DNA of 64,000 nucleotides from positions 544,001 to 608,000 of the forward strand of contig OZ219865.1 in assembly GCA_964291675.2 (NCBI GenBank), written 5' to 3'. The translations under genes and the position numbers were made by a program. The notes under the pieces were generated by a model. The model made no database searches. It saw only the letters and a list, made by a program, of their open reading frames with translations, and had not been told where the DNA came from. Source of the stretch: Alphaproteobacteria bacterium. Its GTDB lineage: Bacteria > Pseudomonadota > Alphaproteobacteria > MPNO01. Numbering within the stretch: position 1 is the first letter of the stretch; every line of letters begins with the position of its first letter. Shown piece after piece: positions 9,180 to 57,533 of the stretch.

Positions 9180-9256
<77 letters not shown>

Positions 9257-10035: not shown

Positions 10036-10047
10036 GCGCCGGACCGG

Positions 10048-10441: not shown

Positions 10442-10453
10442 TGTCCCATCCGC

Positions 10454-10546
10454 CGGTCGCGCGCACCCTAGCACGGGCATTCGTCCATCTACAAATCATG
10501 TATGACGAAATGGAGATATCGCCCCTCCTGCGCCTGCCGACGCATT
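10454..10546. repeat. Conserved upstream element, copy A
   Basis: ~92-bp imperfect direct repeat with 10862-10953 (CGCGCGCACCCTAGCACGGG..TTCGTC...TATGACGAA.TGGAGAT..CGCCC...ACGCATT). Confidence 0.85.
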
Positions 10547-10600
10547 CCCCGCTACGTCGGCCAGGCCCGCTCTGTCGGGTGGATGCCGAATACAAGAGCC

Positions 10601-10846
10601 TCATCCGGGCGAGGGACAGCTTCCCGCGCCAACTCGCTCGCGTTCGTAGAGGTGGCGGACATCTTCCCGAAGGCTTTGAATGGAGCGCGAAAACTCCGCA
10701 ATCATGCCCTCCAGCCTGGCAACCCGTTCCGCCAGAGCGCCGATCCGCCTGTCGATGTCCCTCATATCGCGATGCAAGGTCCACAGAAACGCCAACACGG
10801 CGACCAGCCCCGCCAAATTCGCGTAGCCCAACGTCTCTGGAGTCAT
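10601..10846 (-). CDS. Small membrane-anchored coiled-coil protein (81 aa), apparent paralog of 10211..10441
   Basis: MTPETLGYANLAGLVAVLAFLWTL (TM) followed by RDIDRRIGALAERVARLEGMI. Confidence 0.65.
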   Translation of the reverse strand: MTPETLGYANLAGLVAVLAFLWTLHRDMRDIDRRIGALAERVARLEGMIAEFSRSIQSLREDVRHLYERERVGAGSCPSPG

Positions 10847-10861
10847 GGATGCCACTGCTGT

Positions 10862-10953
10862 CGGCCGCGCGCACCCTAGCACGGGAATTCGTCGGCCTCC
10901 AAACAGGTATGACGAATTGGAGATGACGCCCTTGCCGCGCCAGCCCACGCATT
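10862..10953. repeat. Conserved upstream element, copy B
   Basis: Direct repeat of 10454-10546, offset ~408 bp. Confidence 0.85.
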
Positions 10954-10993
10954 GGATGACCCGCTCGAACCGGGTCGGTACCGGACGCCGGAC

Positions 10994-11488
10994 CTATTCG
11001 AGCGCGTCCCGAAGCCGGCGCCTGATCCGTTCGAGCTCGCCGAGGGTTTCGGCGAGCGCCGCCTTCAGCGCGGCGGCCTCGGACGCTTCGGCCGCGACCG
11101 CCGGGGCCGGGGCGGGGCGGGGCGCCACGACCGCTTGCGTGCGGTCGATCGGCGTGGGCTCGACCGTCGGGCGCGCGGGAAGCTGCCGCTCGGCCAGCGC
11201 CTTCGCGCCGCCCTCGCGCAGCAGCTTCTGCACACCCTTGATGGTGTATCCGTCGGTATACAGCAGGTCGCGGATCGAGCGCAGCAGGTCGATGTCCTCG
11301 GGCCGGTAGTAGCGCCGCCCGCCGCCGCGCTTCATCGGCTTGACCTGGATGAACTTGCTCTCCCAGAACCGCAGCACGTGCTGGGGGACCTCGAGCTCGC
11401 CGGCCACCTCGCTGATGGTGCGGAACGCCGATGCCGACTTGCCGGCCCCGCGGCGCCTGGGCTCGACCGATGGCGCGGCCTCGGCCAT
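10994..11488 (-). CDS. MerR-family transcriptional regulator
   Basis: [30 protein letters not shown]...[11 protein letters not shown]; conserved position downstream of ihfA. Confidence 0.93.
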
Positions 11489-11491
11489 CGC

Positions 11492-11821
11492 TCAGCCGCC
11501 GGACTCGTCGTCGGTGCCGCCGCCGGCCATCGTCTCGTTGATCCGCGACTTCAGCACGTTGGAAGCGCGGAACACCAGCACCTTGCGCGGAAGTATCGGC
11601 ACTTCCTGGCCGGTCTTCGGGTTGCGCCCCACCCGGGGCCCCTTCTGGCGGACCGAGAAGCTGCCGAAGGAGGAAATCTTCACCGGTTCGCCGCGGGTCA
11701 GCGAATCCGAGATCTCCCGCAGCACGGTTTCCACCAGCTCCGCGGACTCGTTTCGCGACAGCCCGATTTCCTGATAGACCGCCTCCGCCAAGTGCGCGCG
11801 CGTCACCGTCGCCGACGCCAT
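11492..11821 (-). CDS. ihfA: Integration host factor subunit alpha
   Basis: [11 protein letters not shown]...VKISSFGSF...[23 protein letters not shown]. Confidence 0.96.
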
Positions 11822-11956
11822 GTCCCAAAGCCCTCGCCTGTTCGACCCACAGGGTACGCCGAACGAAGAATTCAGTCAATTATCAATAGGATAGGCGGTT
11901 TGGCTAATGTAAAGCCACGATTTCCGGGGGTTTCCGGCCCCGAAGCGCTTCCCGGC

Positions 11957-12931
11957 TTACCAGCGAACCAGGCTCGCGCCCCAGGCGAAGCCGCCGCCCA
12001 TGGCTTCGAGCAGACAGAGATCGCCGCGCTTTATCCTTCCGTCCGCCACCGCCTCGGCGAGCGCCAGCGGGATCGACGCGGCGGAGGTATTGGCGTGGTG
12101 ATCGACGGTGACGATCACCTTCTCCTCCGGCATGCCGAGCTTGCCCGACGTGCTCTTTATGATCCGCAGATTGGCCTGGTGCGGGACCACCCAGTCGACG
12201 TCGTCCGCGGTCAGGCCGTTGGCCGCCAGGGCCTCCTGCATCACCGAGGCGAGGTTGACCACGGCGTGGCGGAACACGTCGCGGCCGGCCATCCTGAGAT
12301 GGCCGACCGTGCGGGTGCTCGACGGCCCGCCGTCGACGAACAGGAGGTCGTGATGGCGCCCGTCCGAGCGCAGGTGGTTGGAGAGCACGCCGCGGTCGGC
12401 GGCGGTCCCCTCCCCCTGTTCCGCGCGCAGCACCACCGCCCCCGCCCCGTCGCCGAACAGGACGCAGGTGGCGCGGTCCTGCCAGTCGAGAATCCGGGAG
12501 AAGGTCTCCGCGCCGATCACCAGGGCGGAGCCCGCCTGGCCGAGGCGGATGAAATTGTCCGCGACGTTGAGCGCGTAGATGAAGCCCGAGCACACCGCCT
12601 GGACGTCGAACGCGGCGCCCCGGCGCATCTCCAGCGCGTCCTGCACCCGGGTCGCGGTGGCCGGGAAGGTCTCGTCCGGCGTCGCCGTGGCGACGACGAT
12701 GAGGTCGAGTTCGGAGGACGGCATCGCCGCCCGGTCGAGCGCGATGCGGGCGGCGGCGGTCGCCAGATGCGAGGTGAACTCGCCCTCGGCGGCGACCCGG
12801 CGCTCGTGAATGCCGGTGCGCTGGACGATCCAATCGTCCGAGGTGTCGACCATCCGCGCCAAATCGGCGTTGCTGAGCACCTTCTCGGGAAGATACCCGC
12901 CGCAGCCGGCGACGACGGCCCTGGCCACCAT
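11957..12931 (-). CDS. fabH: 3-oxoacyl-ACP synthase III
   Basis: [55 protein letters not shown]. Confidence 0.96.
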
Positions 12932-13980
12932 CAGGATGCGGCCGCGCGGGTGCGGACCGGCATCGACAGCACGCCGCCGTCGAGCTGCGCGGTGATCTTC
13001 TCGTTGAAACGATGCGCCGCCATGTCCACCGCCACCCCGATCGCGTTGGCGAAGCCGAAGGCGTCGGTCGAGCCGTGGCTCTTGACCACGGTTCCGTTGA
13101 GCCCGAGGAACATGGCGCCGTTGTAGCGCCGGGGATCGACCCGGGCGCGCAGCTTGTTGAGGCTGCGCCGGGCCAGAAGGTAGCCGAGGCGTGCGCTCAC
13201 CGAGCTCTTGAACGCCCGGCGCAGGAACTCCGTATAGAGCTTGACCGAACCCTCGATCGTCTTGAGCGCGATATTGCCGGAGAAGCCGTCGGAGACGATC
13301 ACGTCGACCGTCCCCATGGCGATATCGTCGCCCTCGACGAATCCGTGGTAGCGGATGCCGGCGTTCTTCTCGCGCAGGATGGCGGCGGCCTGGCGAACCG
13401 CCTCGTGGCCCTTCACCTCTTCGGTGCCGACATTGAGCAGCCCGATCGAGGGGTCCTTGAGCCCGAGCACGGTGCGGCCGAACTCGGAGCCCATGATCGC
13501 GAACTGGATCAAATTGTCCGCGTCGCACTCGACATTCGCGCCGAGGTCGAGCATCACGCTCTCGCTGCGGTAGTTGGGGAAGACCGCCGCGATCGCCGGG
13601 CGGTCGATGCCGGGCAGGGTCTTGAGGGTGAACTTCGCCATCGCCATCAGCGCGCCGGTATTGCCGGCGGACACCACGCCTTCCGCCTCCCCGTCGCGCA
13701 CGGCGTTGATCGCAAGCCGCATGCTGGAGCGCTTGCCCTGGCGCAGGGCCTGCGACGGCTTGTCGTCGTCGCTGACCGCCTCCTCGGTGTGGTCGATGGC
13801 GATGACCTTGCGCAGCTTGGGCATCCGCTTGAGCAGCGGCGCGATCCGGCGTTCGTCCCCGAACAGGCGGAAGCGCACGCCGGGATAGCGCCGCCGCGCG
13901 ATGTTCGCGCCCCTGACGACGATGCGCGGCGCGTTGTCGCCGCCCATCGCGTCGAGCGCAATTGTCGCCAGCGCAGTCAA
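12931..13980 (-). CDS. plsX: Phosphate acyltransferase PlsX
   Basis: [51 protein letters not shown]; TTG start inferred. Confidence 0.95.
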
Positions 13981-14011
13981 CCGGATCCGCCTTCCAGCGA
14001 CGCGACGCGGC

Positions 14012-14194
14012 CTAGGCCGGGCTCGCCTCGGTGACTTCCCGGCCGTCGTAATGTCCGCAGGACGGGCAGACATGGTGGGGGCGCTTGTACTCGCCGCAGT
14101 TCGGGCACTCGCCGTAGGCCGCCGCGCTCAGCGCGTGATGCGAACGCCGCATGTTGCGGCGCGACTTGGACACTTTCTTCTTCGGTACAGCCAT
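14012..14194 (-). CDS. rpmF: 50S ribosomal protein L32
   Basis: [19 protein letters not shown]...[20 protein letters not shown]. Confidence 0.97.
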
Positions 14195-14280
14195 CGCCAC
14201 AGTCTCTGTTTGGGATGATCGAACGCCGAGCGTGCGGATACCTAGCCAAAGGACGCGCGGCCGGCAAGCCAGAGCGAAGT

Positions 14281-14808
14281 CTAGCTGTTTTCGCTCCGTT
14301 CTTCCAGCGCGCGAAACGGCGAATCGGCGCTGGCCGGGGAAAGCTCCCCGGTCTCGCCCGGGGCGAGCGTCGAATCGGCGTCCGGCGACCGGGGAAAGGG
14401 ATCGAGGGAGAGCGCGAGCTCCACCGCGACGGCCTCGCCGATGTCGATCGCCTCGCCGGCAAAGGGCTCGAAATCCTCGTCGGGCGGGATGACGACCGTC
14501 TTCGGCGCCGGCGCGTCGTCCGGCACCGGGCGCAGCAGAAGCGTCACCTCCTCCTCGATTTCGCCCGGCACCGGTTCCAGCGTCACCACGCAGTCCTGGA
14601 TCGCCCGGGCCGACAGGCGCGCGGCCAGCCGCACGTCGCCGTCGCGGGTGCGGCGCAGCGACACGGTGGCGGAGAGGCGCTCTATCGCGACGATGGCGAA
14701 GCGCCGGGCGAGCGCACGGCGTTCGGCCGCGTCGGCGGCGATCTCGCGGACGATGCCGGATTCCGAAATCCGCTCGAGGCGGACGATGCGCGAGAACTCG
14801 GGCGTCAC
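14281..14808 (-). CDS. DUF177 (YceD) family protein
   Basis: [49 protein letters not shown]; upstream of rpmF. Confidence 0.88.
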
Positions 14809-15365
14809 GGCGCCTCGCCCGGCGGGGCGGGGTGCGAGAACCCCGTCTCGAAGCGCACCTGGCCTTGCAATAACCGGTCGAGCGGCTGGGCCGCGAGCGC
14901 CGCGGCCTGGTTCCGTGCATAGCACGCCATCGCGGTCGCGCCGTCGGGGGGTGCGGAGACCGTGCCGTAGAGGTTGCGGCAGAGCGCCGAACGGAGGGCT
15001 TCCCGATCGCCATCGAGCCCCCGGTCGTAGGCCTTGACCCGGCCGAGGAACGAGCTCGCCATGAACTTGACGCGACGCCCGACGCCGAGGTCGCCCGCGC
15101 CCATCTCCCTGAGGCAGCGATCCATGTCGTCGAACATCGCATCGAACAGGGACTGCGCGAGGTCGCCGGTCCGCTCCGGATCCTCGCGCAGCCGGCGCAG
15201 GACGAGATAGGCGTGCAGCGCGATGAGCTCGAACCGGCCGTCGAGCGTATCCGGAACCCCGCCCGCGGTGTAGAACTCGGCCGAGCGGGCCCGCTCCACC
15301 GCCGCGGCGTAGAGCGCCTCGGCCGACATCCGGGTCTCCCTCCTGTCGCGCAGACGCTTCAACAT
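14805..15365 (-). CDS. Ubiquinol-cytochrome c chaperone (Cbp3-like)
   Basis: [44 protein letters not shown]. Confidence 0.9.
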
Positions 15366-15475
15366 CCCGTCATCGCCCGTGGCTTCGGATTGACAGGCGA
15401 CGAACTTGGTGCATTCTCTGCGCGAGGTCCAGCGATCCGGCCCTCCCGGGCCTGGGACAGCGGAAACCGCAGCCG

Positions 15476-31086: not shown

Positions 31087-31176
31087 GGATGGGTGGCCGA
31101 GCGGTCGAAGGCACCGGTCTTGAAAACCGGCAGGCGCGCGAGCGTCTCGTGGGTTCGAATCCCACCCCATCCGCCA
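31087..31176 (+). tRNA. tRNA-Ser(UGA)
   Basis: GGATGGGTGGCCGAGCGGTCGAAGGCACCGGTCTTGAAAACCGG...GTTCGAATCCCACCCCATCCGCCA; 90 nt with long variable arm. Confidence 0.97.
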
Positions 31177-47315: not shown

Positions 47316-47379
47316 CCTAACCCCTTGAAAAACTTGGTGCGCGCACCAGGACTCGAACCTGGGACCCACTGATTAAAAG
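47316..47379. repeat. att site (left): duplicated 3' portion of tRNA-Lys
   Basis: 47334-47379 is identical (46 bp) to 57457-57502; similarity extends to 47316/57439 (CCTAACCCCTTGAAAA) with 2 mismatches. Confidence 0.95.
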
Positions 47380-47533
47380 GCATTCCCGAGCGCCGTTCGC
47401 GACCGTTAGGCGCCGGCATGTCATCGTTAATAGATAAGCTATTTCAATCTCTTAGCAAGTCTCCAAATAGGCCATTGCGTTAATCGCCGTTAGTCCGTAT
47501 CGTGGCGACATGGCGACACACTGGAGACTCGAA

Positions 47534-48739
47534 ATGGCGACCGATGGGAAATCAGTGGCACTCACGGAGCGGCGCATCCGGGACGCCAAGGCCACCGGCA
47601 AGACCTACATCATCCGCGACACCCGCGTTGTGGGGCTGGGCGTCCGCGTGTCCAGCGCCGGCACCCGCGCCTATGTGATCGACTACAGGACCGGCGGGCG
47701 CCGCCGCCTCGCCACGCTGGGGCGCTGCTCCGAGATGACGCTGGCGGACGCGCGGAAGCTGGCCGGGCGCGAGCTGGCCGCCGTTCGGAACGAGGGCGCC
47801 GACCCCCTGCGGCGGCGCGCGGACGCCAAGGCGGCGCCGACTGTCGCCGACCTGATCGACCGCTTCCTAGACGACTACGCGCCCCGGCGGATCGACCAAG
47901 GGCGCCTCGCCCCGAAGACGTTGAACGAGTACCGCCGGCAAGCGAACGGCACCCTCCGGCCGGCGCTGGGGCGGTTGAAGGTGGCCGACGTGAAACGCGC
48001 CGATGTCGAGCGGGCCGTTGCCAAGTGCGCCCCTGTCGAGCGCAACCGGCAACTGTCGCTCGCGCGGCGGCTGTTCAATCTCGCCGAGGATTGGGAAATG
48101 CGCGAGCCCGGCACGAACCCGGCGAGGCGAATCGACCGGGCGCGCGAGGAACCCCGCGACCGCGTGTTGTCGCCGGCAGAGATTGGCGCGCTCGGTGCCG
48201 CGCTGGCCGGGCTCGACAATCCCATCGTCGCCGGGGCGATCCGATTCATGACGTTGACGGGCTGGCGCGGCGACGAAGTGCGGCGCCTCCGGTGGGAGAA
48301 CGTCGACACCGAGACGGGCGAGGCGCTGCTGCCGTCGACGAAGACCGGCCGCGACCGCCGCACCATCGGCGCCGCCGCGCTCGGCATCCTCGCCGACATG
48401 CCGCGCATTCACGGCAACCCGTTCGTGTTCGCGGGCGCCAAGGCGGCGGCGGTCTCCTACAAGACCATGCACCAGGCTTTCGGGCTCGCGTGCGAGCGGG
48501 CCGGCATCGAGGGCGCCCAGCCGCACGATCTTCGCCGCACCCTCGCCACGTCCGCCGCCGCGTCCGGCATGACGCTGGTGGGGCTTCGCGACCTGCTCGC
48601 GCACAAGACCACGACGATGGCCGCGAGATATGCGAGGCGGTCCGATAGCGTCCTGCGGGCCGCGCAAGACGACATGGCCGACCGGATGGCCGGCATGCTG
48701 GACGGGGCGGACGCCGAAATCGTGGCGATTCGCAAATAG
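47534..48739 (+). CDS. Tyrosine recombinase/integrase with N-terminal arm-binding domain
   Basis: IRDTRVVGLGVRV...RRRLATLG (arm-binding); catalytic R (TGWR), K (TKTG), HxxR (HDLRR), H (LAHK), Y (RYA); adjacent to att. Confidence 0.95.
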   Translation: MATDGKSVALTERRIRDAKATGKTYIIRDTRVVGLGVRVSSAGTRAYVIDYRTGGRRRLATLGRCSEMTLADARKLAGRELAAVRNEGADPLRRRADAKAAPTVADLIDRFLDDYAPRRIDQGRLAPKTLNEYRRQANGTLRPALGRLKVADVKRADVERAVAKCAPVERNRQLSLARRLFNLAEDWEMREPGTNPARRIDRAREEPRDRVLSPAEIGALGAALAGLDNPIVAGAIRFMTLTGWRGDEVRRLRWENVDTETGEALLPSTKTGRDRRTIGAAALGILADMPRIHGNPFVFAGAKAAAVSYKTMHQAFGLACERAGIEGAQPHDLRRTLATSAAASGMTLVGLRDLLAHKTTTMAARYARRSDSVLRAAQDDMADRMAGMLDGADAEIVAIRK

Positions 48740-48872
48740 GCGTTGCGCAACCACAATTCTGCGTATTGTTTAGGTGTCGCCCGTTAATTCGAGCGGGCGG
48801 CATGGTCACTCACCAACCGGGGGAACAGCCATGTCACGGAAGGAACCGACAACGACATAGGGGCTCCCCCCC

Positions 48873-49079
48873 ATGACCAGATTCGATCCCGAAGTCTTCT
48901 ATCGTTCGACCGATCCCGCGCTGGCCGTGATCGCGACCAGCGGCACGTTGCGTGTCTGGAGATGCCAGAAACGCGGGCCGCGCTATCACCGGCTGGGTGG
49001 GCGAGTCGTCTATTCGGGCAAGGACCTGAACGACTACATCGACTCGTGCGCCGTCGATCCTGCTGACGCCGCCGCCTGA
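48873..49079 (+). CDS. Excisionase/AlpA-like HTH DNA-binding protein
   Basis: TLRVWRCQKRGPRYHRLGGRVVYSGKDLNDYI. Confidence 0.82.
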   Translation: MTRFDPEVFYRSTDPALAVIATSGTLRVWRCQKRGPRYHRLGGRVVYSGKDLNDYIDSCAVDPADAAA

Positions 49080-49084
49080 ACGAG

Positions 49085-49117
49085 AAAACCCCCGGGCCAC
49101 GACTCCCGGGGGCTTTC
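49085..49117 (+). terminator. GC hairpin after the excisionase-like gene
   Basis: AAAACCCCCGGG-CCACGACT-CCCGGGGGCTTT. Confidence 0.5.
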
Positions 49118-49142
49118 CAGTGTTTGACCACGACGGCACATC

Positions 49143-49763
49143 ATGGACGGCGGGAACGTAGCCGACCGCGCGAGCCGGCGCAAGCCACCGCCGCTGATCG
49201 TGGCCGTTGCGCAGGCGCCGCGATACCGCGGCATCAAGCGGCTGGTGCTGTTGCAGCTTGCCCTTTGGGGCAACCGGGACGGCACCCGGATTTTTCCCTC
49301 CCTTGGCCACGTCGCCGAGCTCGCCGGCATCGACGTGCGCAGCGTGCGCCGCCACGTCCGGGCGTTCGAGACGGACGGCGTGTTGACCGCCGTGGCGCGC
49401 TCGCGGGGCGGGCGGGCGGCGAACGGGCGGGCCAGGACCACCGAATACAGGCTCAATCTGGCGGCGCTCAACCCGGACTCGGGAGTCCGGGTTAACCCGG
49501 ACTCTGGTGTCCCTCAACCCGGACTCTGGTGTCCCTCAACCCGGACTCACGAGTCCGACAACCCTGTAAGACCCTCCAAGACCCTTGCGCCGCCCGCCTC
49601 GCCTGCCGAGGGGCAGGCGGGCGGCGCTTCCGAAACGCGGGAAGAAATCGAGGCCGAGATAGAGGCGCTGCAAAACGACCTGCGGAGCTACATGGACCCG
49701 GACGCGGCGCGTGCCGTCCGCAGGCGGCTGGCCGAGTACAAGCGAAAGCTCACGACGGCATAG
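49143..49763 (+). CDS. HTH-domain replication initiator-like protein (lambda O-type architecture)
   Basis: KRLVLLQLA...IFPSLGHVAELAGIDVRSVRRHVRAFETDGVL...TTEYRL, followed by an internal iteron block. Confidence 0.72.
   Translation: MDGGNVADRASRRKPPPLIVAVAQAPRYRGIKRLVLLQLALWGNRDGTRIFPSLGHVAELAGIDVRSVRRHVRAFETDGVLTAVARSRGGRAANGRARTTEYRLNLAALNPDSGVRVNPDSGVPQPGLWCPSTRTHESDNPVRPSKTLAPPASPAEGQAGGASETREEIEAEIEALQNDLRSYMDPDAARAVRRRLAEYKRKLTTA
49470..49557. repeat. Iteron-like array (putative origin) inside the rep gene
   Basis: AACCCGGACTC at 49470, 49494, 49516 and 49538 (last three with 22-bp period); inverted copy at 49483-49493. Confidence 0.8.
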
Positions 49764-49772
49764 GAGGCCGAA

Positions 49773-49985
49773 ATGCACTACCCGACCACGCTCCCCGATA
49801 CCCCGGAACGCTGCGACGCGGCGATAGGCCGATGGGAACGGTTCGCGGACAAGCTCAAGCCGACCGACGAGCGCGAGATTGCAATCGTCGGCGGCTACAT
49901 CGCGACGCTGCTTCAGCACAAGCGCGACCTGAAGGCGGTCGCCGAGGCGGAGAACGTTGAACCCCTGCGGAGGACGGCGGCATGA
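49773..49985 (+). CDS. Hypothetical protein (70 aa)
   Basis: AGGAGG RBS; ATGA overlap with the next gene. Confidence 0.7.
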   Translation: MHYPTTLPDTPERCDAAIGRWERFADKLKPTDEREIAIVGGYIATLLQHKRDLKAVAEAENVEPLRRTAA

Positions 49986-50185
49986 CAGACCAGAAGCTCG
50001 AAATCGACCTTCCCGGAACGATGCATCCGGGCGATGAGGTGTACGGCGTAATCATCGGCATGGACGGCGGGGCGCGCGTGTGCTGGACCAATGCGTTCCT
50101 CGCCCTGCCACGGGAAGAACGTCAGCAAGTGGGCGTCCTGCTGCAAGAGGCGGTCAAGATCGTGCCGCCGAGGGAGCGTATCTGA
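49982..50185 (+). CDS. Hypothetical protein (67 aa)
   Basis: Translationally coupled on both sides (ATGA and TGATG). Confidence 0.68.
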   Translation: MTDQKLEIDLPGTMHPGDEVYGVIIGMDGGARVCWTNAFLALPREERQQVGVLLQEAVKIVPPRERI

Positions 50186-50481
50186 TGCCCTGCGAACGCT
50201 GTATCTGGTGGCGCACCGAGGACGATGCGCCGACCACCGATGAAGGCGTGCCGCACTACGGCACATGCCACGCCGCACCCCCTCGCCCCGAGATACGCCT
50301 GACCGACGACCCGAACGAGCTTCAAGGCAAGTTCGTCCAAACGGTCTGGCCGTGGACCAAGCCGCACGATCATTGCGGCGGGTTCGTTGATAGCGCCTGG
50401 GTGGACCCCTCAACCGGCACGATCAAGAGGCCGAACGTGCTGCCGCCTATGGACGATGACGGCACCGAGACGCTGCAATGA
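50185..50481 (+). CDS. Cys-rich phage-type hypothetical protein
   Basis: MPCERCIWW...GTCHAAPP...WPWTKPHDHCGGF (CxxC...C..PP...WP...C pattern); coupled start. Confidence 0.68.
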   Translation: MPCERCIWWRTEDDAPTTDEGVPHYGTCHAAPPRPEIRLTDDPNELQGKFVQTVWPWTKPHDHCGGFVDSAWVDPSTGTIKRPNVLPPMDDDGTETLQ

Positions 50482-51245
50482 GCGACGGCGATGCCACCCC
50501 CCTGTCAAACTGGCTGTGTGCCGAGGCCGACCGGCTGAGGGACCGCGCGCGGGAACGGCGAAAGGACATCATCGCGGACGGGCGGGCGCTGCTGGCCGCG
50601 AAGGACGAATGCAGGCACGGCGAGTGGCTTCCGTTCCTCTCGCGCGCCGGCATCGGCGAGCGCATGGCGCAAGAGCTCATGAAGATCGTCCGGGCTATCG
50701 ACGCGGGCGAAATCGAATCCGCAACGGTTGCGGATTTGGGCATCCGCGCTGCGCTCCAACAGCTACGCGGGCCGAAGGTGGTCCGCATTGCATCGCCGGC
50801 AGAATTGCACACGTTGCAGGACACGGCGAACGCCACCGGCGATCCGATAGTCGCGGAGCTATGGGGCAAACGGGTTTCGCTCAAACCCATCTCGCCGGAG
50901 GCGTCCCGCAATCGGGGCAAGATGTTCATCGGCTGCGCATGGCGGCTTGGGAGAGCGATAGAACGAAACCGCCCCGACCTGGCCGAGCTCGGCAAGCGGC
51001 TGCGGTCATCGTTCGAGGTGATCCACAAGGCGAAAATCAGGACGCTTGAAGAGGGCGCGGAAAAGGCCGCCGCCTTCTATCTCCGCTATCCAGCCGGGCC
51101 GCCCGACGTAGACGCCGAGCATGAGGCCGGGGCGGTTTTGGAGGCGCATGACGTGCCGGAATGGACCACCGCCTTGCTTCTAAGCTGCTGGACGCCGGGC
51201 CACCTTCCCGAGGCGTTCTGGAGCGACTTCAACGAGAGGGGCTGA
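50478..51245 (+). CDS. DUF3102-domain protein
   Basis: GRALLAAKDECRHGEWLPFL....IGERMAQELMKI fits the DUF3102 consensus (G..L..AK....HGEW..W.......R.A..LM). Confidence 0.72.
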   Translation: MSDGDATPLSNWLCAEADRLRDRARERRKDIIADGRALLAAKDECRHGEWLPFLSRAGIGERMAQELMKIVRAIDAGEIESATVADLGIRAALQQLRGPKVVRIASPAELHTLQDTANATGDPIVAELWGKRVSLKPISPEASRNRGKMFIGCAWRLGRAIERNRPDLAELGKRLRSSFEVIHKAKIRTLEEGAEKAAAFYLRYPAGPPDVDAEHEAGAVLEAHDVPEWTTALLLSCWTPGHLPEAFWSDFNERG

Positions 51246-51330
51246 GGGCGCCGGCAGGATTGACACGCCGCGCGGGGCTCGGATGGTGGAGGCGCGAGCT
51301 ATTTGGAACCAATCGAAAGGAGATCGATCC

Positions 51331-51486
51331 ATGGATTATCGCCGAGAATTGCAGAAAATAATCCAATCTGAAGACGAATTGCGAGAGGACTACGTGATTG
51401 CCGTCGCTGCGCTGGCCTTGTTGGAAAAGATGGACGATTTGCACTCAGGTCTTTCGGACATCGACCTGACCATGACGATGAAGTAA
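51331..51486 (+). CDS. Small hypothetical protein (51 aa), lower GC
   Basis: AAGGAG RBS upstream of ATG 51331. Confidence 0.5.
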   Translation: MDYRRELQKIIQSEDELREDYVIAVAALALLEKMDDLHSGLSDIDLTMTMK

Positions 51487-51780
51487 TTCCCCTGCACCGC
51501 TCGGGCGAGCATCGAGCATTTCCGAACGACGAGGGCCGGCAGCGGGGGTGACCTACTGCCGGCCCTCTCCCGAACGAGGAAACCACCGGTTGACGAGACC
51601 GGCGTGCGAACCCTGCCACGGACACACGCCCCTCGCAACAGGATATTGCGCAAAAGGTACTGTGACGGGCGGAATCGGGCGCGGTTGGGGGGCATCATCG
51701 CAATCTTTTCCGATTTCCGGGGCGCCTGGCGCAACAAACGGTTTGACCGCTAGGCCATTCCGCGCCACCTTGTTCTCACG

Positions 51781-53016
51781 ATGTTCGAGCGAATCCGGCA
51801 TGCCTTCCGGGGCGAATCGAGGTCATCCGAGCTTGACGTGGGGGCGCTCTATCAAGCCGCGTTCCAGTTCGAGGGCGGGAGCTATAGCTGGGCGCGCTCC
51901 CCGGCCCTTCTGGTCAGCTCCCTGTCCCTCCCGGACGCCGCCGGCGACAGTACGGGCGTACTGCTGACCGAAAGCCGGCGCCTGGGGCGCACGTCGCCGC
52001 TGTTGATCGCCTATAGGGGCGTCATGGAGACCGGCATCCTGACGGGCGAGCCGGAGGCGCCGGAGTTCCCCGACACCGTGCCGGAGAACGTCGCCGCCGC
52101 CGTGGCCGACCTGTGGCTCGACACCCACGACTGCGACCGCGAGCGCGACCTACTCGATAGGGTCATCGTCGACGGCGAGTTCCTGATTCTCGAGACCGGG
52201 GAAGTCGTGCCGCCGGACGGGTTCGAGCCGATCATGGCCGGGGCGAAATGGAATCCCACCGTGACAGGCTACCGAGTCGGCAAGTCGAGCCGCGCCCGCA
52301 TGGTCGGCGTCCGGCATGTCGGCGACCGCCCGATGGGCGCCGCCCGGGCTCTGCCGTGGCTGGCGCCCGCGCTCCCGCCCGCCGCCGGGCTGTTGAACGC
52401 GCGGACGGGCGCCGGGCATGCGCTCGGCATCATGGCGAAGATCGCCGCCGTGATCGCCAACGCCTCCCCGGATCGCCAGACCGCAGCCGCCGGGCATCGG
52501 TCGGGCGTAGTCGGCGCCGACCGGAACGAGCTGCCGCGCCAACCGATAACGACCGTGGGCGTGGGCGCCGTGCCGTTCCTGAAGATGGGCGAGGCGGTCG
52601 ACCGCGTTGAGGCCGGGCCGGATGAGACCGCCCGTAAGTACGAGGGGCAGCTCGAACGAGATGTCGCGTCGGCGCTCCACCTTCCCCTGTCCGAGCTTCT
52701 GAGCGACTACAGCACCGGCTCATTCAGCAACCTGCGCATGGCATGGGCGGACGGCGTGGCGGAGAAGCGGCGCCGCCGCGCATGGTGGCACCGCCACTAT
52801 CGGCGCCCGGCCTATCTGGACGTGCTGTCCACCGCCTTCGCGGCGGGGCGCCTCCCCCGCATGAGCATGGCCGTCATGGCCGCGCTCAAGCGCCCGTCAT
52901 GGCCGGGGCCGACCCCCATCGCACCCGAACCCCTCAAGCAAGCGCTCACCCTGTCGGAGCTTGTCGAGGCGGGAATCATCGACCCCGCCGCAGCGGCGGC
53001 ACAATTGGAGCAATGA
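51781..53016 (+). CDS. Phage portal protein (lambda-family-like, divergent)
   Basis: LSELLSDYSTGSFSNLRMA resembles the lambda-type portal motif (YxxLxxDYSxxxYSSxR); RGxPWL-like ARALPWLAP; first gene of the head module. Confidence 0.7.
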   Translation: MFERIRHAFRGESRSSELDVGALYQAAFQFEGGSYSWARSPALLVSSLSLPDAAGDSTGVLLTESRRLGRTSPLLIAYRGVMETGILTGEPEAPEFPDTVPENVAAAVADLWLDTHDCDRERDLLDRVIVDGEFLILETGEVVPPDGFEPIMAGAKWNPTVTGYRVGKSSRARMVGVRHVGDRPMGAARALPWLAPALPPAAGLLNARTGAGHALGIMAKIAAVIANASPDRQTAAAGHRSGVVGADRNELPRQPITTVGVGAVPFLKMGEAVDRVEAGPDETARKYEGQLERDVASALHLPLSELLSDYSTGSFSNLRMAWADGVAEKRRRRAWWHRHYRRPAYLDVLSTAFAAGRLPRMSMAVMAALKRPSWPGPTPIAPEPLKQALTLSELVEAGIIDPAAAAAQLEQ

Positions 53017-53020
53017 GACG

Positions 53021-54259
53021 ATGAAGAAATCGGTACAGCTTGCCGTCCGGGCATCCGAAATCCGGTCGGAGATCAACGGGCTCGATCCGGGCGAGGCGAC
53101 CCTGGAGAAGCGCCGCGAGCTTCTGGAACAGCTCAACACCGTCGAGTCGGAGTACCGCGCCGCGCTCACCACCGAGGCCGAGACGGACGCGGCGGCGCCG
53201 GACGCGAACGGGCTGACCGCCGAGGAACGCGAGTTCCGCGCGCTCGAAAGCCGGGCCGAGCTTCGCACCGCGTTCCGCGCGGTCATGTCGGACGCCCCGC
53301 TGGCGGGCGCCGAGAAGGAGTTGCAGGAGCATCGCGGGCTCTCCGGTCACGCGCTCCCCTGGGACCTGATCGCGCCGCGCGCCCGCACCGAGGAACGGGT
53401 GGACGCCGTGTCGGCGGCGCCGTCCGACTCCCATCTGCAGCAGCACCCCATCCTCGCCCGCGTGTTCGCCCGGTCGGCGACCGCGACGCTGGGGGTGGCG
53501 ATGCCGATGGTGCCGGTCGGGGAACAGAACTACCCCGTCATCACGACCACCGATAAGGCGGTCATCCTCGCCAAGGACGCGGCCGAGGGCGACACGGCGG
53601 ACGCCGGTATCACGGCGCACACCATCGCCCCGACCCGGTTGCAGCGCTCCTACCTGTTCCGCCGCGAGGACCAAGCGGTTCTGAGCGGGCTCGAGGAGGC
53701 GCTGAGGGCCGACCTGTCGGGCGCCGTGTCCGACCTGCTGGACGCTCAGGTTCTCGCGGGCGACGGCAGCGCGCCCAATTTCGGCGGCTTCCTCGCCACC
53801 GCCGCGAACGGCGGGCTCACGGATCGCAGCGACACGCCCGCCCGCGTGACGTTCGCGCTGGCGGCCGGCGAGGCCGCGCGGGGCATCGACGGGCTCTATG
53901 CCGGCGGGCTCGGCGAGTGCGCCATCGTGATCGGCGACGACACCGCGCGCGATCTGGCGAGCAAGTTCACCACCAACGGCGAGGAGTCGGCGCTCGCGTA
54001 CATGAGCCGCACGACCGCCCGCGCGATGGCGAGTGCGAACGTCCCCGCCGTCGCGTCCAATTTCCAAGAGGGCATTCTTGCCCGCATGGGCGCCGCCGGC
54101 ATGAATTCGGTCTGCCCGGTCTGGGATGGCATGTTCGCGATCCGCGACGAAATCAGCGGGCGCAAGTCGGGGCAAATCAGCATCACCATCGGCATGCTCT
54201 GCGGCTTCGACATCCTGCGTGCGGGCGGCTACGACCGGCTGAAATTCCGAGTCGCCTGA
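53021..54259 (+). CDS. Major capsid protein (HK97-like, N-terminal coiled-coil scaffold/delta region)
   Basis: 412 aa; charged helical N-terminus; capsid-like YPVITT...AEG, LEEALRADLSGAVSDLLDAQVLAGDGSAPNFGG, IRDEISGRKSGQISIT. Confidence 0.78.
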   Translation: MKKSVQLAVRASEIRSEINGLDPGEATLEKRRELLEQLNTVESEYRAALTTEAETDAAAPDANGLTAEEREFRALESRAELRTAFRAVMSDAPLAGAEKELQEHRGLSGHALPWDLIAPRARTEERVDAVSAAPSDSHLQQHPILARVFARSATATLGVAMPMVPVGEQNYPVITTTDKAVILAKDAAEGDTADAGITAHTIAPTRLQRSYLFRREDQAVLSGLEEALRADLSGAVSDLLDAQVLAGDGSAPNFGGFLATAANGGLTDRSDTPARVTFALAAGEAARGIDGLYAGGLGECAIVIGDDTARDLASKFTTNGEESALAYMSRTTARAMASANVPAVASNFQEGILARMGAAGMNSVCPVWDGMFAIRDEISGRKSGQISITIGMLCGFDILRAGGYDRLKFRVA

Positions 54260-54753
54260 TGGCTGTCGAGTACCGATTCGCCGCGCTGGAGTTCCGCAGC
54301 GACGGCGCCGTGATCGAGGGCGTCGCCATGCGTTACGGCGACGTGGCGCGCATCTATGGCGCCTTCGACGAATCGGTTGAGGCCGGCGCGTTCCGGTTCG
54401 ATGACGTGATCCTGAACCGGATGCACCAGCGCGCCGACCCCATCGCCCGGACGGGCGGCGGCGGGCTCGAATTGTCGGACTCGTCCGTGCGCCTCGCCGT
54501 GCGGGCGGACGTGCCGGAGTATCGGGCGGACGTTCGCGACATGGTGAAGCGCGGCATCCTCCGGGGGTTCTCTGTCGAGATGGACGTGACCGCCGAGGAA
54601 TGGCCGTCGCCGTCGCGCCGGATCATCCGCGCCGCAACGCTGTCGGGCATCGGACTCGTCGACCGCCCGGCCTATGGAGACGCGACCGCCGAGATTGCCA
54701 AGAGGGCGAAGGAATGCCGGACGGCAACGCGGTTCCTGCCCCTAGCGGTCTGA
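54259..54753 (+). CDS. HK97-family prohead protease
   Basis: IEGVAMRYG, FDESVEAGAF, LNRMH, VKRGILRGFSVEM, IGLVDRPAY. Confidence 0.88.
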   Translation: MAVEYRFAALEFRSDGAVIEGVAMRYGDVARIYGAFDESVEAGAFRFDDVILNRMHQRADPIARTGGGGLELSDSSVRLAVRADVPEYRADVRDMVKRGILRGFSVEMDVTAEEWPSPSRRIIRAATLSGIGLVDRPAYGDATAEIAKRAKECRTATRFLPLAV

Positions 54754-56576
54754 GGCGCTGGGCCGAGCGCAACGTCGTCGTCGGCGACGGGCCGCTTGCC
54801 GGCTCGCCCTACCGGGCAGGCGGCGGCGGACAGGGGCGCCCGCCAGTGCCGGCATGGGGCGAGGTGATCGACGCGTGCGACGACCCAGATCTAGAGCAAG
54901 TCACGATCCGGGGCAGCGTACAGAGCGGCAAGACCGCCGGGCTGATCGTGGCCGCGCTGGGCCATATGGCCGCCGGGCGCTCCGTGCTGATCTTCGAGCC
55001 CGACGACAGGCTCAAGCGCACCCTCGCCGCGCGCATTGTCGCGTGGGGGCGCCTCTGTAGGGACGAGGCTATCCGGGAGGCGTACGAACCCGCCCGGCCC
55101 CCTCACGCGCGCTCAGTGGCCGGCGGAGGGCGCCTGGAGGTGGTTTCCGCGCGAGAGGGCGGCGCCGGTCTCATGCGCACCGCCGAGATAGTCATCGTCG
55201 ACGAGCTGCGGGTGTTCCACCGCGACATGCTCGGCGAGCTGGTCGACCGCATGGCCGCCTATGGCGGCGCCGGCAGGCTTATCACCGCATCGTCGGCGGG
55301 GTACGAAGACGAGTGCCGAACGACCGTCGAGCTGGACAAGTCCGACGCCCGGCGATGGTTCCTGCGATGCCCCTCCTGCGGGCAGCAGAACATCGCTCAG
55401 TGGTCCAACGTGATCTACAAGGGCCGGGCGTCCCCGATCTACTGCATGCCCTGCTGCGGCGCCGCGCTCTCGTCAATCGAGTTCCGCCACGCAGTAGTGG
55501 CCGGCGAGTGGCGCCCGACGAAGGAGGAGTCCGTGCCTGGCACCCGGGGCTATCATCTGGACGCCTTCCTGAGCCCGTTCGAGTCCCTGCCGACCATCGT
55601 GCGCCAGTGGAAGCGCGCGGACGCCCACCGCAAGCAGACCGGCTCCATGGCCGACGTGATCAGCTTCCAATGCGGAAGGCTCGCGCTCCCGTACAAGCCC
55701 GAGGCCGCGCAAGGGGTAACGCCCGAGGCGCTGGCGACCGCGTGCCGCGAGGACTACGACCCCGACATCGTGCCGGCGGGCGCGTCCCTGCTGATAGGCG
55801 CCGTCGACGTGCAGGACAACCGCCTGGAGGCCGAGATAACCGCCTGGGGCGTTGTCGAGGTCGCCGCGCCGCAGGACGCGAGCGAAGTGAAGGGCTGGGG
55901 CTCGCACGAATTTCGCGGCCTCGCCCATGACGGGCGCTGGTATCGCCTGCGGCGATGGGCGATGGAGTACCGCCGCCTGTACGGCGACCCCGGCAACGCC
56001 GACGTGTGGGAGGCCCTGGCCGAGTTCATGGAGACGCCGCGCCCGCACGCGACCGGCGCCATGCTCCGCCCGGTCACGGTCGGCGTCGATATCGGCGGAC
56101 ACTACGGGCAGCAGGTTGCCGATTTCGTCCGCGTCCGTGGCGAGGGCTATCAGTGCCTGAAGGGCATTCCGGCCGGGCGGATCGGCGCGATGCTCGCGCG
56201 GCGATCGGTCACGGCGGACAGTCTCGACACCTACGGGCCGGCGGGGCTGATGCTGGTAGGGCCGGACTCCGGCAAGGCGACCGCCTTCAGCCTCATGCGC
56301 CAGAGCATCGCGGGCGCCGAGCCGCGCCCGATGGTCTGGCCGATGGAGGAGTCGCGCTACGGCCCTCAAGAGTTCGAGTCCATCGTGTCCGAGACCCTGG
56401 TGCGCGCGCTCGACAAGAGGACGGGGAGGACCACGCTGATGTGGAGGAAGATCGCCCGCGAGAACGAGGGACTGGACCTGATGGTGTACAGCTTGGCCAT
56501 AGCCTCCCACCTGGGGGTCGGGCTCATGCTGCACGAAGCCGCGACCATCGCCGCCGCCGAGAGGATCGCCGCATGA
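54714..56576 (+). CDS. Terminase large subunit, lambda GpA family
   Basis: RWAERNV, Walker A GSVQSGKT, Walker B IVIVDE, CPSCG...PCCG Zn motif, GEWRP, nuclease GAVDVQDNRLE, VDIGG, RENEGLDLMVY. Confidence 0.88.
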   Translation: MPDGNAVPAPSGLRRWAERNVVVGDGPLAGSPYRAGGGGQGRPPVPAWGEVIDACDDPDLEQVTIRGSVQSGKTAGLIVAALGHMAAGRSVLIFEPDDRLKRTLAARIVAWGRLCRDEAIREAYEPARPPHARSVAGGGRLEVVSAREGGAGLMRTAEIVIVDELRVFHRDMLGELVDRMAAYGGAGRLITASSAGYEDECRTTVELDKSDARRWFLRCPSCGQQNIAQWSNVIYKGRASPIYCMPCCGAALSSIEFRHAVVAGEWRPTKEESVPGTRGYHLDAFLSPFESLPTIVRQWKRADAHRKQTGSMADVISFQCGRLALPYKPEAAQGVTPEALATACREDYDPDIVPAGASLLIGAVDVQDNRLEAEITAWGVVEVAAPQDASEVKGWGSHEFRGLAHDGRWYRLRRWAMEYRRLYGDPGNADVWEALAEFMETPRPHATGAMLRPVTVGVDIGGHYGQQVADFVRVRGEGYQCLKGIPAGRIGAMLARRSVTADSLDTYGPAGLMLVGPDSGKATAFSLMRQSIAGAEPRPMVWPMEESRYGPQEFESIVSETLVRALDKRTGRTTLMWRKIARENEGLDLMVYSLAIASHLGVGLMLHEAATIAAAERIAA

Positions 56577-57142
56577 ACGTCTATCGCCACATGATCGACT
56601 ACGGCGAGTCCCTCCGATGGGAGCCGCCCGCCGGGACCGGCAAGTTCTTCGTGTGGCGCAAGATCGGCGAGGTCGGCGCCGCCATGCGCTGGCGCCGTGT
56701 CGGCGGCCATGACGTGGCCGGCGGCACCGAGATCACCGTGCCGGAAGGGACGTTCGCGGTTCCCGCCGCGCAGGTCGCCCTCGCCTGGGGCGACGTGCTG
56801 GCGCTGTTCGATGGGTTCGACCCGGAAGTGATCCAGGTCACGGCGCACGGCGACGGCGAGGCGCTGATACGGCGCGACACCTACACCCTCCCGCCGCCGA
56901 CCAGTATCGACGCGGACACCATCGCCGCCCAAGAGCGCCGGCTACTGAAAGCCCTGCTCGACCAACGCGCCGCCGTGGCGGACGTGTCGGGCATGGTGAA
57001 GGTCACGGACCCGAGCGGCACCGCCGTCGAATACCAGAACCTTGCCGCGCTCGACCGGCGAGTCGCCGAGGTCCGGGCGCGCATCGCGTGGTTCGAGCAG
57101 GCGGCGGCGGGGAACGTGCTTCCGCGCGCCGAATTCTGGTAG
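56573..57142 (+). CDS. Putative head-completion protein with gpW-like C-terminus
   Basis: C-terminal KVTDPSGTAVEYQNLAALDRRVAEVRARI resembles gpW-like head-tail joining proteins; ATGA-coupled to the terminase. Confidence 0.55.
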   Translation: MNVYRHMIDYGESLRWEPPAGTGKFFVWRKIGEVGAAMRWRRVGGHDVAGGTEITVPEGTFAVPAAQVALAWGDVLALFDGFDPEVIQVTAHGDGEALIRRDTYTLPPPTSIDADTIAAQERRLLKALLDQRAAVADVSGMVKVTDPSGTAVEYQNLAALDRRVAEVRARIAWFEQAAAGNVLPRAEFW

Positions 57143-57169
57143 GGCGCCGCGTGCTGCTACACTGGCCGC

Positions 57170-57391
57170 ATGTCGATGTTGAAGGAATTCGGCGACATGC
57201 TCGACGGTAAGGGGCCTGGCCCTGTGTCGACTTGGGCTGCTCGGCTGTTTCTGCTGTGGCTGACAGTCATGCTCTTCTGCATCGGCGTCCTCATGATTGA
57301 CCTGGTGAAAGACGTGTGGCTGGGCGGCGACGAGGACGTGCTGCGGCAAATCCTCGACATCCTCGACGAGCGCCTTCCGCCGCCCCGCTGA
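57170..57391 (+). CDS. Small single-TM hypothetical protein
   Basis: WAARLFLLWLTVMLFCIGVLMIDLV hydrophobic segment; last ORF before att. Confidence 0.5.
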   Translation: MSMLKEFGDMLDGKGPGPVSTWAARLFLLWLTVMLFCIGVLMIDLVKDVWLGGDEDVLRQILDILDERLPPPR

Positions 57392-57457
57392 GGCGACATA
57401 TTGGCAACATGCCGCCGCCGCCGTGTCGCCTGATTTCGCCTAACCCCTTGAAAAGAT

Positions 57458-57533
57458 TGGTGCGCGCACCAGGACTCGAACCTGGGACCCACTGATTAAA
57501 AGTCAGTTGCTCTACCACCTGAGCTATGCGCGC
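57458..57533 (-). tRNA. tRNA-Lys(UUU), integration target
   Basis: Reverse complement GCGCGCATAGCTCAGGTGGTAGAGCAACTGACTTTTAATCAGTGGGTCCCAGGTTCGAGTCCTGGTGCGCGCACCA; 76 nt. Confidence 0.97.

Follow-up and report, generated by a model that had tools for sequence, protein, structure and literature searches.

A tRNA-Lys-integrated element of 10 kb with a mosaic lambda/HK97-type head module may represent a new lineage of capsid-forming satellites in an alphaproteobacterium

The 64,000-nt stretch of contig OZ219865.1 analysed here (referred to as the window), from an Alphaproteobacteria bacterium, contains a compact element of 10.1 kb at a tRNA-Lys gene. The ends of this element are marked by a 67-nt direct repeat with copies at 47316–47382 and 57439–57505, which are identical at 64 of the 67 positions (three mismatches), share a perfect core of 46 nt and are spaced 10,123 bp from start to start. 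Between both copies, 14 open reading frames (ORFs), all located on the + strand and tightly packed, comprise an integrase gene, a set of early genes and a head-and-packaging module, i.e., a lambda-family portal, an HK97-type major capsid protein (MCP), a prohead protease, a lambda GpA-type large terminase (TerL) and a protein of no sequence family (referred to as g13). When all 14 ORFs were searched in Pfam, PHROGs and NCBIfam, no tail, lysis (holin or endolysin), repressor, primase, small terminase (TerS) or HNH family was matched by any of them. An earlier note on this DNA had described intact attachment (att) repeats at this same spacing, genes on one strand that were mostly coupled, and no recognisable tail, lysis, repressor or primase genes, and all three observations were borne out, the first by comparison of the repeats and of an empty site in a related genome (see below). 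From the sequence comparisons below, an independent family of compact, capsid-forming mosaic elements is well supported, and a tail-borrowing satellite lifestyle is the reading of the window element that we moderately favour.

The left repeat (attL, 47316–47382, no strand assigned) corresponds to the duplicated 3′ part of tRNA-Lys plus 19 nt, and the right repeat (attR) is the 3′ part of the intact tRNA-Lys(ttt) gene (57458–57533, – strand), so that attR and tRNA together span 57439–57533. In another genome of the same genus (G009), the sequences matching the two flanks share 93% identity with the window and adjoin each other around one tRNA-Lys, with a single copy of the attL sequence. Since this is the empty site (attB), insertion is proven by comparison, and the 10-kb region is a real insertion at a tRNA-Lys hot spot. 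In yet another species of the genus (G010), the same tRNA-Lys site holds a different, 13.2-kb capsid island with the same core in 55-nt copies. Among three species of the genus, the site thus holds the element in one, is vacant in another and holds a different island in the third, which argues for recent mobility rather than vertical domestication. Moreover, sequence inspection revealed arm-type repeats next to both att copies, i.e., TGGCGACA twice in tandem together with ATGGCGAC at 47503–47543 (+ strand), overlapping the start of int, and GGCGACA-N4-TGGCAACA at 57392–57415 (+ strand). The TGGCGACA-type repeats, which also occur on both sides of one related element (L008, see below), are probably integrase arm-binding sites.

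These data bear on the idea that the element serves its host, with the head module being kept for phage interference or for a role like that of a gene transfer agent (GTA) rather than for its own spread. Satellites are indeed described as interfering with their helpers (PMC10085698), and the elements discussed here sit at conserved tRNA sites and persist across species. Nevertheless, the integrase, the Xis-like protein, Rep with its iterons, the att repeats and the arm sites are all intact, the occupancy of the tRNA-Lys site differs among the three species, and the element was not found in 19 genomes of the same family that were searched, which makes such a host-serving role quite improbable.

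The head operon begins with a short lambda-family portal gene (51781–53016, 411 aa), the product of which matched Phage_portal_2 with an E-value of 7.5e-13 (48.8 bits vs. a cut-off of 32.9) and phrog_21 at 5.7e-17; its match to the NCBIfam model portal_lambda (3e-5) stayed below the cut-off. It is followed by the MCP gene (53021–54259), by the gene for a 164-aa prohead serine protease of the S78/HK97 type (54259–54753; Peptidase_S78, E 2.3e-13) and by the TerL gene (54714–56576), whose product matched GpA_nuclease (1.5e-45), GpA_ATPase (1.7e-16) and phrog_15 (1.8e-67) and which is present as a single copy in the host genome. Next come g13 (56573–57142, 189 aa) and, last, the gene for a small protein with a single transmembrane (TM) segment (57170–57391, 73 aa), which belongs to no family and is not conserved in relatives. 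The portal and capsid genes are 4 nt apart, and the subsequent genes overlap by 1 nt (capsid/protease), 40 nt (protease/TerL) and 4 nt (TerL/g13).

The portal, protease and TerL assignments thus pass the profile searches on which the earlier note had made its portal and capsid calls depend, and the capsid call is weak for the window protein alone, which matched Phage_capsid (PF05065) with an E-value of only 0.0098. However, 30 of the 32 aligned members of the capsid family matched PF05065 (best E-value of 3.9e-7, with the match starting near residue 144), so that the call holds at the level of the family. A search of the capsid profile against PDB sequences gave no matches. The N-terminal part of the MCP, preceding the PF05065 match, is a coiled coil of ~110–130 aa, and in the structure model the helices between residues 3 and 89 (i.e., the N-terminal ~90 residues) were predicted confidently, the remainder being unreliable. 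This predicted helical region fits an HK97-like delta domain, and such a delta-like domain would explain the lack of a scaffold gene.

With the capsid profile, nine loci were recovered from contigs of a collection with one genome per species. In six of these (L008–L013), the genes for portal, capsid, protease, TerL and g13 are arranged as in the window, and a tRNA gene follows shortly after g13 (for Thr, Met, Lys, Lys, Glu and Ser, respectively). Five belong to metagenome-assembled genomes (MAGs) labelled Alphaproteobacteria or Micropepsaceae, and one (L013) to a MAG labelled Immundisolibacterales. Four of the six relatives are intact islands, bounded by att repeats of 52–66 nt with a spacing of 9,883, 10,199, 10,253 or 12,416 bp at tRNA-Thr, Met, Lys and Lys, and have a full-length TerL ORF; the longest of them carries extra cargo including an IS1595 transposase gene. 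In the other two, TerL is broken. L012 has in-frame stops in TerL and two IS3-type insertions (HTH_Tnp_1 and rve transposase genes), with no att repeat found, and TerL of L013 is split over two frames. The tRNA-integrated relatives of ~10 kb with the same gene order that the earlier note had suggested looking for are thus found. Two members show additions of their own: an extra 243-aa ORF without a Pfam match lies between the capsid and protease genes of the otherwise typical L011 (11362–12093), and a gene for a DUF2635 protein (E 2.3e-11) follows g13 in L013 (14220–14453).

Beyond these loci, the family has a patchy distribution. Of 400 further genomes of the class, four had a capsid-profile match with an E-value of at most 1e-20, and one weak match (27% identity) was obtained on plasmids. 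No relative of TerL was detected in the 19 same-family genomes searched, only weak matches (25–29% identity) were obtained in 4 of 100 relatives, and a single-protein TerL search of genome contigs gave no match. A large protein collection contained 330 capsid homologues, and the 120 listed were 60–100% identical and almost all unnamed, many of them encoded on contigs of 6–12 kb. No capsid relative was detected by tblastn among 50,697 phage records. TerL did match 226 phage records, all with less than 60% identity, and the twelve listed were 25–27.5% identical. No published description of the family was found in a literature search outside of supplementary tables, where satellite catalogues could list members.

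Selection on the head genes was estimated from the ratio of nonsynonymous to synonymous substitution rates (dN/dS, Nei-Gojobori method, leaving out the L012 TerL rows because of the in-frame stops). In the least saturated pair (L008 vs. L009, dS of 0.29–0.61), dN/dS was 0.32 for the portal, 0.17 for the MCP, 0.31 for the protease, 0.18 for TerL and 0.43 for g13. In comparisons of the window with L008–L011 (dS near 0.6–1.3), it was 0.15–0.26 for the MCP and 0.18–0.30 for TerL, and the ratio remained below 1 in all valid pairs. By this measure the head genes are under purifying selection, and, together with the distance from known phages, this indicates that the head module works and was not captured recently from any phage sequenced so far.

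A remnant of a decaying prophage, i.e., the leftover head module of a larger lambda/HK97-like prophage, might also leave a small island with head genes. The broken TerL in two of the six relatives, and a second and smaller island in the host genome with integrase, capsid and protease genes in which no TerL was found, would be in line with such decay. Nevertheless, this compact architecture and size are found again and again, at five different tRNA genes in all (Thr, Met, Lys, Glu and Ser), with intact att repeats and ORFs in four of the six relatives, all five head genes are under purifying selection, no full-size phage among the 50,697 records has a related capsid, the sister species has an empty site, and no residual tail or lysis fragments were seen among the ORFs. 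This explanation is therefore largely refuted, and we hold it to be very improbable. The earlier note, which had preferred an independent element over a decayed prophage or a single deletion derivative of a prophage of 35–50 kb, and which had raised relaxed selection on the head genes as a possible objection, is supported on these points by the recurrence of the module in six of the nine loci, four of them intact islands with own att repeats at different tRNAs, by purifying selection and by the empty site.

A second type of island pairs a related capsid with different packaging genes. Six such sister-type loci were found, four of them in the same class (L043, L046, L048 and L132, the last being the island at the tRNA-Lys site of G010) and two in Acidobacteriota MAGs (L014 and L015). 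They have an integrase, an Xis-like protein, DUF3102, HTH_36 or AAA_25 genes, TerL, HNH, capsid, S78 protease, a small ORF and a short portal. Like the window element they are tRNA-integrated islands of ~10 kb (adjoining a tRNA in L043, L046, L014 and L132) with early genes of the DUF3102, HTH_36 or AAA_25 kind, and they share with it an integrase that is 48–50% identical (L043, L046 and L132), an Xis-like protein (37–51%), a capsid (27–47%) followed by an S78 protease, and, in the sister species, even the same tRNA-Lys site. The unusual placement of the capsid gene ahead of the protease gene is shared by both families. In contrast, the sister islands carry an HK97-type TerL (~500 aa, matching TerL_ATPase or Terminase_6N where recognisable), an HNH protein (in four of the six loci, i.e., L043, L046, L048 and L132, by the same Pfam scan as used for the window) and a short portal that matches Phage_portal (337–370 aa, again in four of six loci), in the order TerL-HNH-capsid-protease-portal and without g13. 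The island L132 (G010:C1:4304001-4324000, 2179–15464; 13.2 kb) has an integrase, Xis-like protein, capsid and protease that are 48%, 37%, 31% and 34% identical to those of the window, respectively, next to an HTH_36 Rep, HNH, and an IS21 insertion that is apparently located inside or beside the terminase region.

In the capsid tree, the seven MCPs associated with lambda-type packaging genes grouped together in a single clade (100/98 support), adjacent to MCPs that go with HK97-type packaging genes. As the capsid-protease pair is shared with the sister family, the lambda-type packaging set of the window is consistent with module replacement, the direction of which is not established because the tree was rooted at its midpoint only. 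The comparison supports a constant capsid-protease core that is combined with alternative packaging sets, and hence the chimeric lambda/HK97 nature that the earlier note had ascribed to the packaging module.

Some sister-type loci showed further peculiarities. The related capsid gene of L014 (10001–12933) is interrupted by a 532-aa ORF without a Pfam match, located between capsid residues 363 and 361, and a 397-aa ORF separates the capsid pieces of L015 (7966–10555); a mobile intron, an intein-less insertion and an unknown insertion sequence come into consideration for these interruptions. The second, smaller island of the host genome mentioned above lies outside of the window on the minus strand of contig C1 (~679,200–686,513; L028/L029) and encodes, besides an integrase and a 204-aa ORF, a capsid homologue with 29% identity, an S78 protease with 44% identity, a 333-aa ORF at the portal position and a 107-aa ORF. 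No TerL was detected in it and the 333-aa ORF had no Pfam match, and it may be a reduced or decayed element of the sister type.

No Pfam match was obtained for 32 members of the g13 family nor any match among PDB sequences, and none of the 148 g13 homologues is named or has a Pfam domain. A profile search against 1.84 billion representatives yielded 113 clusters, none of them informative, and the hits in the protein Atlas (scores of at most 0.79) were all hypothetical proteins. No adaptor or connector family could be assigned by sequence, and the element has no second candidate gene for that role. Nor did g13 show similarity to the 194-aa protein encoded after TerL in Roseobacter phage CRP-701 or to lambda FII. 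Structure prediction, on the other hand, gave a model of g13 (mean predicted local distance difference test score, pLDDT, of 83.4) with two domains. The N-terminal β-sandwich (residues 1–109) resembles an immunoglobulin (Ig) V-like fold, as did all 50 re-aligned Foldseek matches listed (best Z-score of 8.2, root-mean-square deviation (rmsd) of 2.9 Å, 96 aligned residues). The C-terminal domain (residues 114–178) is a predicted helix-hairpin-helix, with helices at 114–137 and 157–178 and strands at 142–145 and 151–154. Lambda gpW has the topology helix/β-hairpin/helix, and in lambda, W directly follows the terminase gene A just as g13 directly follows TerL here. Furthermore, none of the other four conserved genes varies as much as g13, which shows an identity of 33–58% vs. 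56–80% for the MCP and has indels in the Ig-like domain. In phage-inducible chromosomal islands that form capsids (cf-PICIs), the adaptor and connector genes are described as variable and as deciding tail compatibility (bioRxiv 10.1101/2025.02.11.637232). Because of this likeness in variability, and of its gpW-like predicted topology after TerL, g13 is proposed to be the head-tail adaptor. A complex prediction of the portal with g13 residues 105–189 scored 0.00 against a mark of 0.32, which, run without controls, is uninformative either way.

A conserved non-coding block, AAGGTACTGTG ... ATCGCA ... CGATTTCCGG, is situated at 51654–51730 (+ strand) in the window, with 127 nt to the portal start codon. 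In most members this block of ~75 nt reads AAGGTACTGTG ... ATCGCA ... CGATTTTCGGAG and lies 91–139 nt upstream of the portal start codon. It was found in the window and in L008–L012, i.e., in six of seven distinct elements, downstream of a GC-rich hairpin, and has one occurrence in the 4.8-Mb host genome. No consensus RNA structure (–4.0 kcal/mol), Rfam family or sigma-70-like promoter (by a simple scan) was detected in it, and the block could be either a cos or packaging site of the GpA-type terminase, or an operator of the head operon. The hairpin of the window has a perfect stem of 12 bp and was identified by sequence inspection at 51531–51568 (+ strand), between the early genes and the head operon; it was not called by a terminator scan.

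The early region starts with the gene for a tyrosine integrase (47534–48739) with an arm-DNA-binding domain (Phage_integrase, E 1.3e-18; Arm-DNA-bind_3, E 1.3e-13; phrog_1, 3e-57). The small HTH (helix-turn-helix) protein encoded next, at the position of Xis or AlpA (48873–49079), matched HTH_17 with an E-value of 1.6e-4, below the Pfam cut-off; its homologues in L008–L011 are 44–52% identical, and the counterpart in L012 is a Phage_AlpA protein at 1.8e-19. The third gene (49143–49763) encodes a replication initiator of the lambda O-like/HTH_36 type, which matched replication initiator families of PHROGs (E-values from 1e-9 to 7e-6, with phrog_270, 1032 and 391 at 1e-9 to 5e-9) and contains three 33-nt iterons within its coding sequence (49457–49557). 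The replication module of the window therefore consists of an O-like initiator with iterons and not of a primase, whereas its counterpart in L009 is a primase-helicase (Toprim and AAA_25). The content between the Xis-like gene and the portal gene is swapped among members in the same way (AAA_25 in L013, HTH_36 Rep in L011), which resembles the modular early region of PICIs and cf-PICIs, described as having an int/regulator/replication module layout (PMC10085698).

Three small coupled ORFs (49773–49985, 49982–50185 and 50185–50481), without a family in the three collections, are followed by a gene for a DUF3102-like protein (50478–51245; E 8.7e-4, below the cut-off; phrog_15609, E 2.7e-7; phrog_1748, E 2.8e-7), a type of protein also encoded in the sister element L043 (1.3e-5). 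The last early gene is a small acidic ORF without a family (51331–51486), just upstream of the head operon; an ORF at the same position in L008 is weakly similar to it (34% over 29 aa, E 6e-4). A cysteine motif (CxxC..WWR..GxC..PP) is common to the product of 50185–50481 in the window and those of L011 8337–8618 and L013 7918–8379, in elements with otherwise unrelated early regions, and judging from this motif these small proteins may be zinc-ribbon regulators.

Known capsid-forming satellites offer the closest comparison. Like cf-PICIs (e.g., EcCIEDL933 and KpCIDSM30104), the window element is an integrative island of ~10 kb with an integrase, a small HTH protein at the regulator position, an analogous replication module and its own capsid, protease, portal and TerL, without tail or lysis genes, in which the gene at the adaptor position is the most variable and the early modules are interchangeable. 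It differs from them in that HNH was absent and neither TerS nor a family of head-tail connectors or adaptors was recognised, in its lambda GpA-type TerL and lambda-family portal (vs. HK97-type in cf-PICIs), in the order portal-capsid-protease-TerL-g13 with the capsid before the protease, and in a capsid without a detectable relative among deposited phages. Moreover, cf-PICIs have been described in enterobacteria and Firmicutes, whereas the closest members of the window family are in MAGs labelled Alphaproteobacteria and one labelled Immundisolibacterales. When the element was compared with the definition given in the methods of bioRxiv 10.1101/2025.02.11.637232 and with the components of SatelliteFinder as described in PMC10085698, it showed a size within ~10–18 kb, integration with an integrase, its own MCP and protease, its own portal and TerL (of lambda families) and no lysis or tail module, and HNH was found in none of the 14 ORFs. 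Counted by function, 7 of the 11 SatelliteFinder components were present, where at least nine are needed according to PMC10085698. The element hence fails as a member of the cf-PICIs: it is a new variant of the capsid-forming satellite concept, like cf-PICIs in logic but outside of their gene-set definition.

Other small mobile elements and head-encoding systems are more distant. Small HK97-type heads are also encoded in alphaproteobacterial chromosomes by RcGTA-type GTAs. GTAs possess tail genes, lack int, att and Rep, and package host DNA. An RcGTA-like identity was rejected since the element has int, att and Rep but lacks tail genes, and since the host genome had no matches to PF05065, PF04860 or PF03354. 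Equally, a complete temperate tailed prophage (30–60 kb, with tail, lysis and immunity genes) was rejected, as the element measures 10.1 kb and none of these families was found. Satellite P4 has a genome of ~11.6 kb, performs its own replication and has its DNA packaged into a small capsid starting at a cos site; it has no capsid, portal, protease or terminase genes, reshapes the P2 capsid via Sid and Psu, and uses the P2 terminase. Like the window element, P4 is integrative, and P4-like satellites are described as carrying AlpA (PMC10085698). Classical PICIs and SaPIs, PICMIs and marine VEIMEs are likewise small integrative elements that have modules for integration, regulation and replication and are carried in phage particles. 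Unlike the window element, they lack a set of major capsid, portal and TerL genes of their own; VEIMEs are described as encoding no major capsid genes (PMC9618062), and PICMIs as encoding no capsid-remodelling genes (PMC10803314). By the description in an abstract, the satellites of the Mulch and Flayer systems in Streptomyces share with the window element the possession of own encapsidation machinery, and they differ from it in their tail adaptations and in belonging to Actinomycetota; key replication genes are described as lacking, and one of these satellites apparently does not integrate (PMC10690885). Finally, the twilight-zone mini-genomes with an HK97 fold and less than 11.6 kb are reported to have commonly an integrase and Rep and rarely tail genes, with the dominant group described as having no portal, terminase or any packaging gene (PMC13669383). 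They resemble the window element in their HK97-type capsid and in a size below that of the smallest tailed phages, and the window family differs in possessing portal, terminase and packaging genes.

Taken together, we consider it reasonably probable that the element, which is intact, belongs to a new lineage of satellites that form their own capsids and borrow tails. Several observations weigh against this. Genes for TerS, HNH, head closure or a connector were not recognised among the 14 ORFs, which leaves packaging specificity and the tail-docking surface unexplained; the six ORFs without a function could hide a TerS. The capsid structure model was poor as a whole (pLDDT 45.8), so that modelling did not confirm the fold. 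The gpW-like label that the earlier note had given to g13 fits the predicted topology and the position after TerL, and is weak otherwise, with an hhalign alignment of g13 128–167 to W 7–50 at an E-value of 0.039 and a probability of 1.3%, and a match of the phage Chi neck chain (83 residues) to the C-terminal domain (Z-score of 6.8, rmsd of 3.6, 67 aligned residues) that was tied with unrelated helical hairpins and is not distinctive. Two of the six relatives (L012 and L013) are damaged. A search of the capsid profile on IMG/VR viral contigs gave 17 pattern matches, none of which was confirmed, and JGI metagenomes yielded one capsid-profile locus (L017) that is identical to L013. Lastly, no helper was identified. 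The host genome (4.8 Mb in two contigs, 93.7% complete) had no matches for the tape-measure (PF10145) and sheath (PF04984) families, nor for HK97-type capsid (PF05065), portal (PF04860) or TerL (PF03354, TerL_ATPase) families, and its only other phage-like packaging locus, on contig 2 (~3,004,600–3,022,700; L031–L033), is SU10/podovirus-like.

This latter locus comprises Terminase_6N, SU10-type major capsid and adaptor genes, GTA_holin_3TM and a CI-like repressor (HTH_3 and Peptidase_S24), with two IS110-family transposase genes on its edge. The window itself carries two more tRNA genes, i.e., tRNA-Pro ggg (9180–9256, – strand) and tRNA-Ser tga (31087–31176, + strand).

The lack of helper-type tail genes in the host genome would also suit a self-sufficient minimal virus or a tail-independent transfer particle, in which DNA-filled heads deliver without a phage tail, and in which g13, the TM protein or the small ORFs could form a minimal delivery device or the capsids enter by another route. 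The Ig-like domain of g13 with its variable loops, as on surface-exposed phage proteins, and five ORFs plus the TM protein without an assigned function leave room for such a device. To our knowledge, however, the known portal-bearing HK97-type particles deliver their DNA through a tail. Only the five structural and packaging genes are conserved across the family and, as the TM protein and the small ORFs are not, no conserved candidate for adsorption or ejection exists apart from g13. With its 10.1 kb, the element is also shorter than the smallest tailed phage genomes known, for which 11.6 kb is quoted (PMC13669383), again in favour of an element that does without a tail. On balance, we judge tail-independent delivery unlikely.

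For a tail-borrowing satellite, on the other hand, a resident helper is not strictly required, since cf-PICIs are described as releasing tail-less capsids without a helper and picking up free tails later (bioRxiv 10.1101/2025.02.11.637232). A bolder version, to which we give less credence and which we regard as doubtful, is that the element is a head-only replicon of 10 kb and of a long independent lineage (because no sequenced phage has a related capsid) that ranks among the smallest self-packaging elements with an HK97 fold, builds its heads with five genes, uses an Ig-plus-gpW-like fusion in place of the adaptor, connector and closure set, and sets free filled capsids without tails, which hijack loose tails of unrelated phages in soil and need no resident helper.

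As a tail-borrowing satellite, the element might operate as follows. The integrase and the small HTH protein would excise it from tRNA-Lys via the 46-nt core and the TGGCGACA arm sites, as their genes and sites suggest, and the O-like Rep would replicate the resulting circle from its internal iterons. Expression of the head operon, which would be under separate control, would be activated via the conserved block that precedes the portal gene. Judging from the gene set, the lambda-type portal, the capsid with its own scaffold-like N-terminus and the S78 protease would then build and mature a small procapsid without a scaffold gene, and the GpA-type terminase would pack into it a single 10-kb genome, with cleavage at a site specific to the element, possibly the conserved block. 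The portal would be capped by g13 via its gpW-resembling C-terminal domain, and the variable Ig-like domain may help to dock a foreign tail. Tails, and probably lysis as well, would be supplied by other phages.

With regard to classification, the earlier proposal of a candidate new class was too strong, as the element is better seen as a new lineage or variant of the known capsid-forming satellite concept; its core, an independent and compact mosaic family that forms capsids, has held, with the gpW-like assignment standing as weak and the satellite lifestyle being inferred only. Capsid-forming satellites have so far come mainly from enterobacteria and Firmicutes and share one gene set (HNH, TerS, TerL, portal, protease, capsid, adaptor and connector). 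The window family suggests the same lifestyle logic assembled from different parts, in uncultured environmental bacteria and at the lower size limit for HK97-type particles. If true, this would widen the known host range and diversity of tail-borrowing elements, and would offer a minimal five-gene head-and-packaging system in which to study capsid size control, scaffold-free assembly and head-tail docking. It would also explain many of the "phage major capsid protein" genes that lie unannotated on short metagenomic contigs, and would mean that current satellite finders miss such elements. If the head-only replicon described above were real, then, together with the sister family, capsid-forming satellites would be broad and modular in environmental Proteobacteria and Acidobacteriota, swapping packaging modules around a capsid-protease core.

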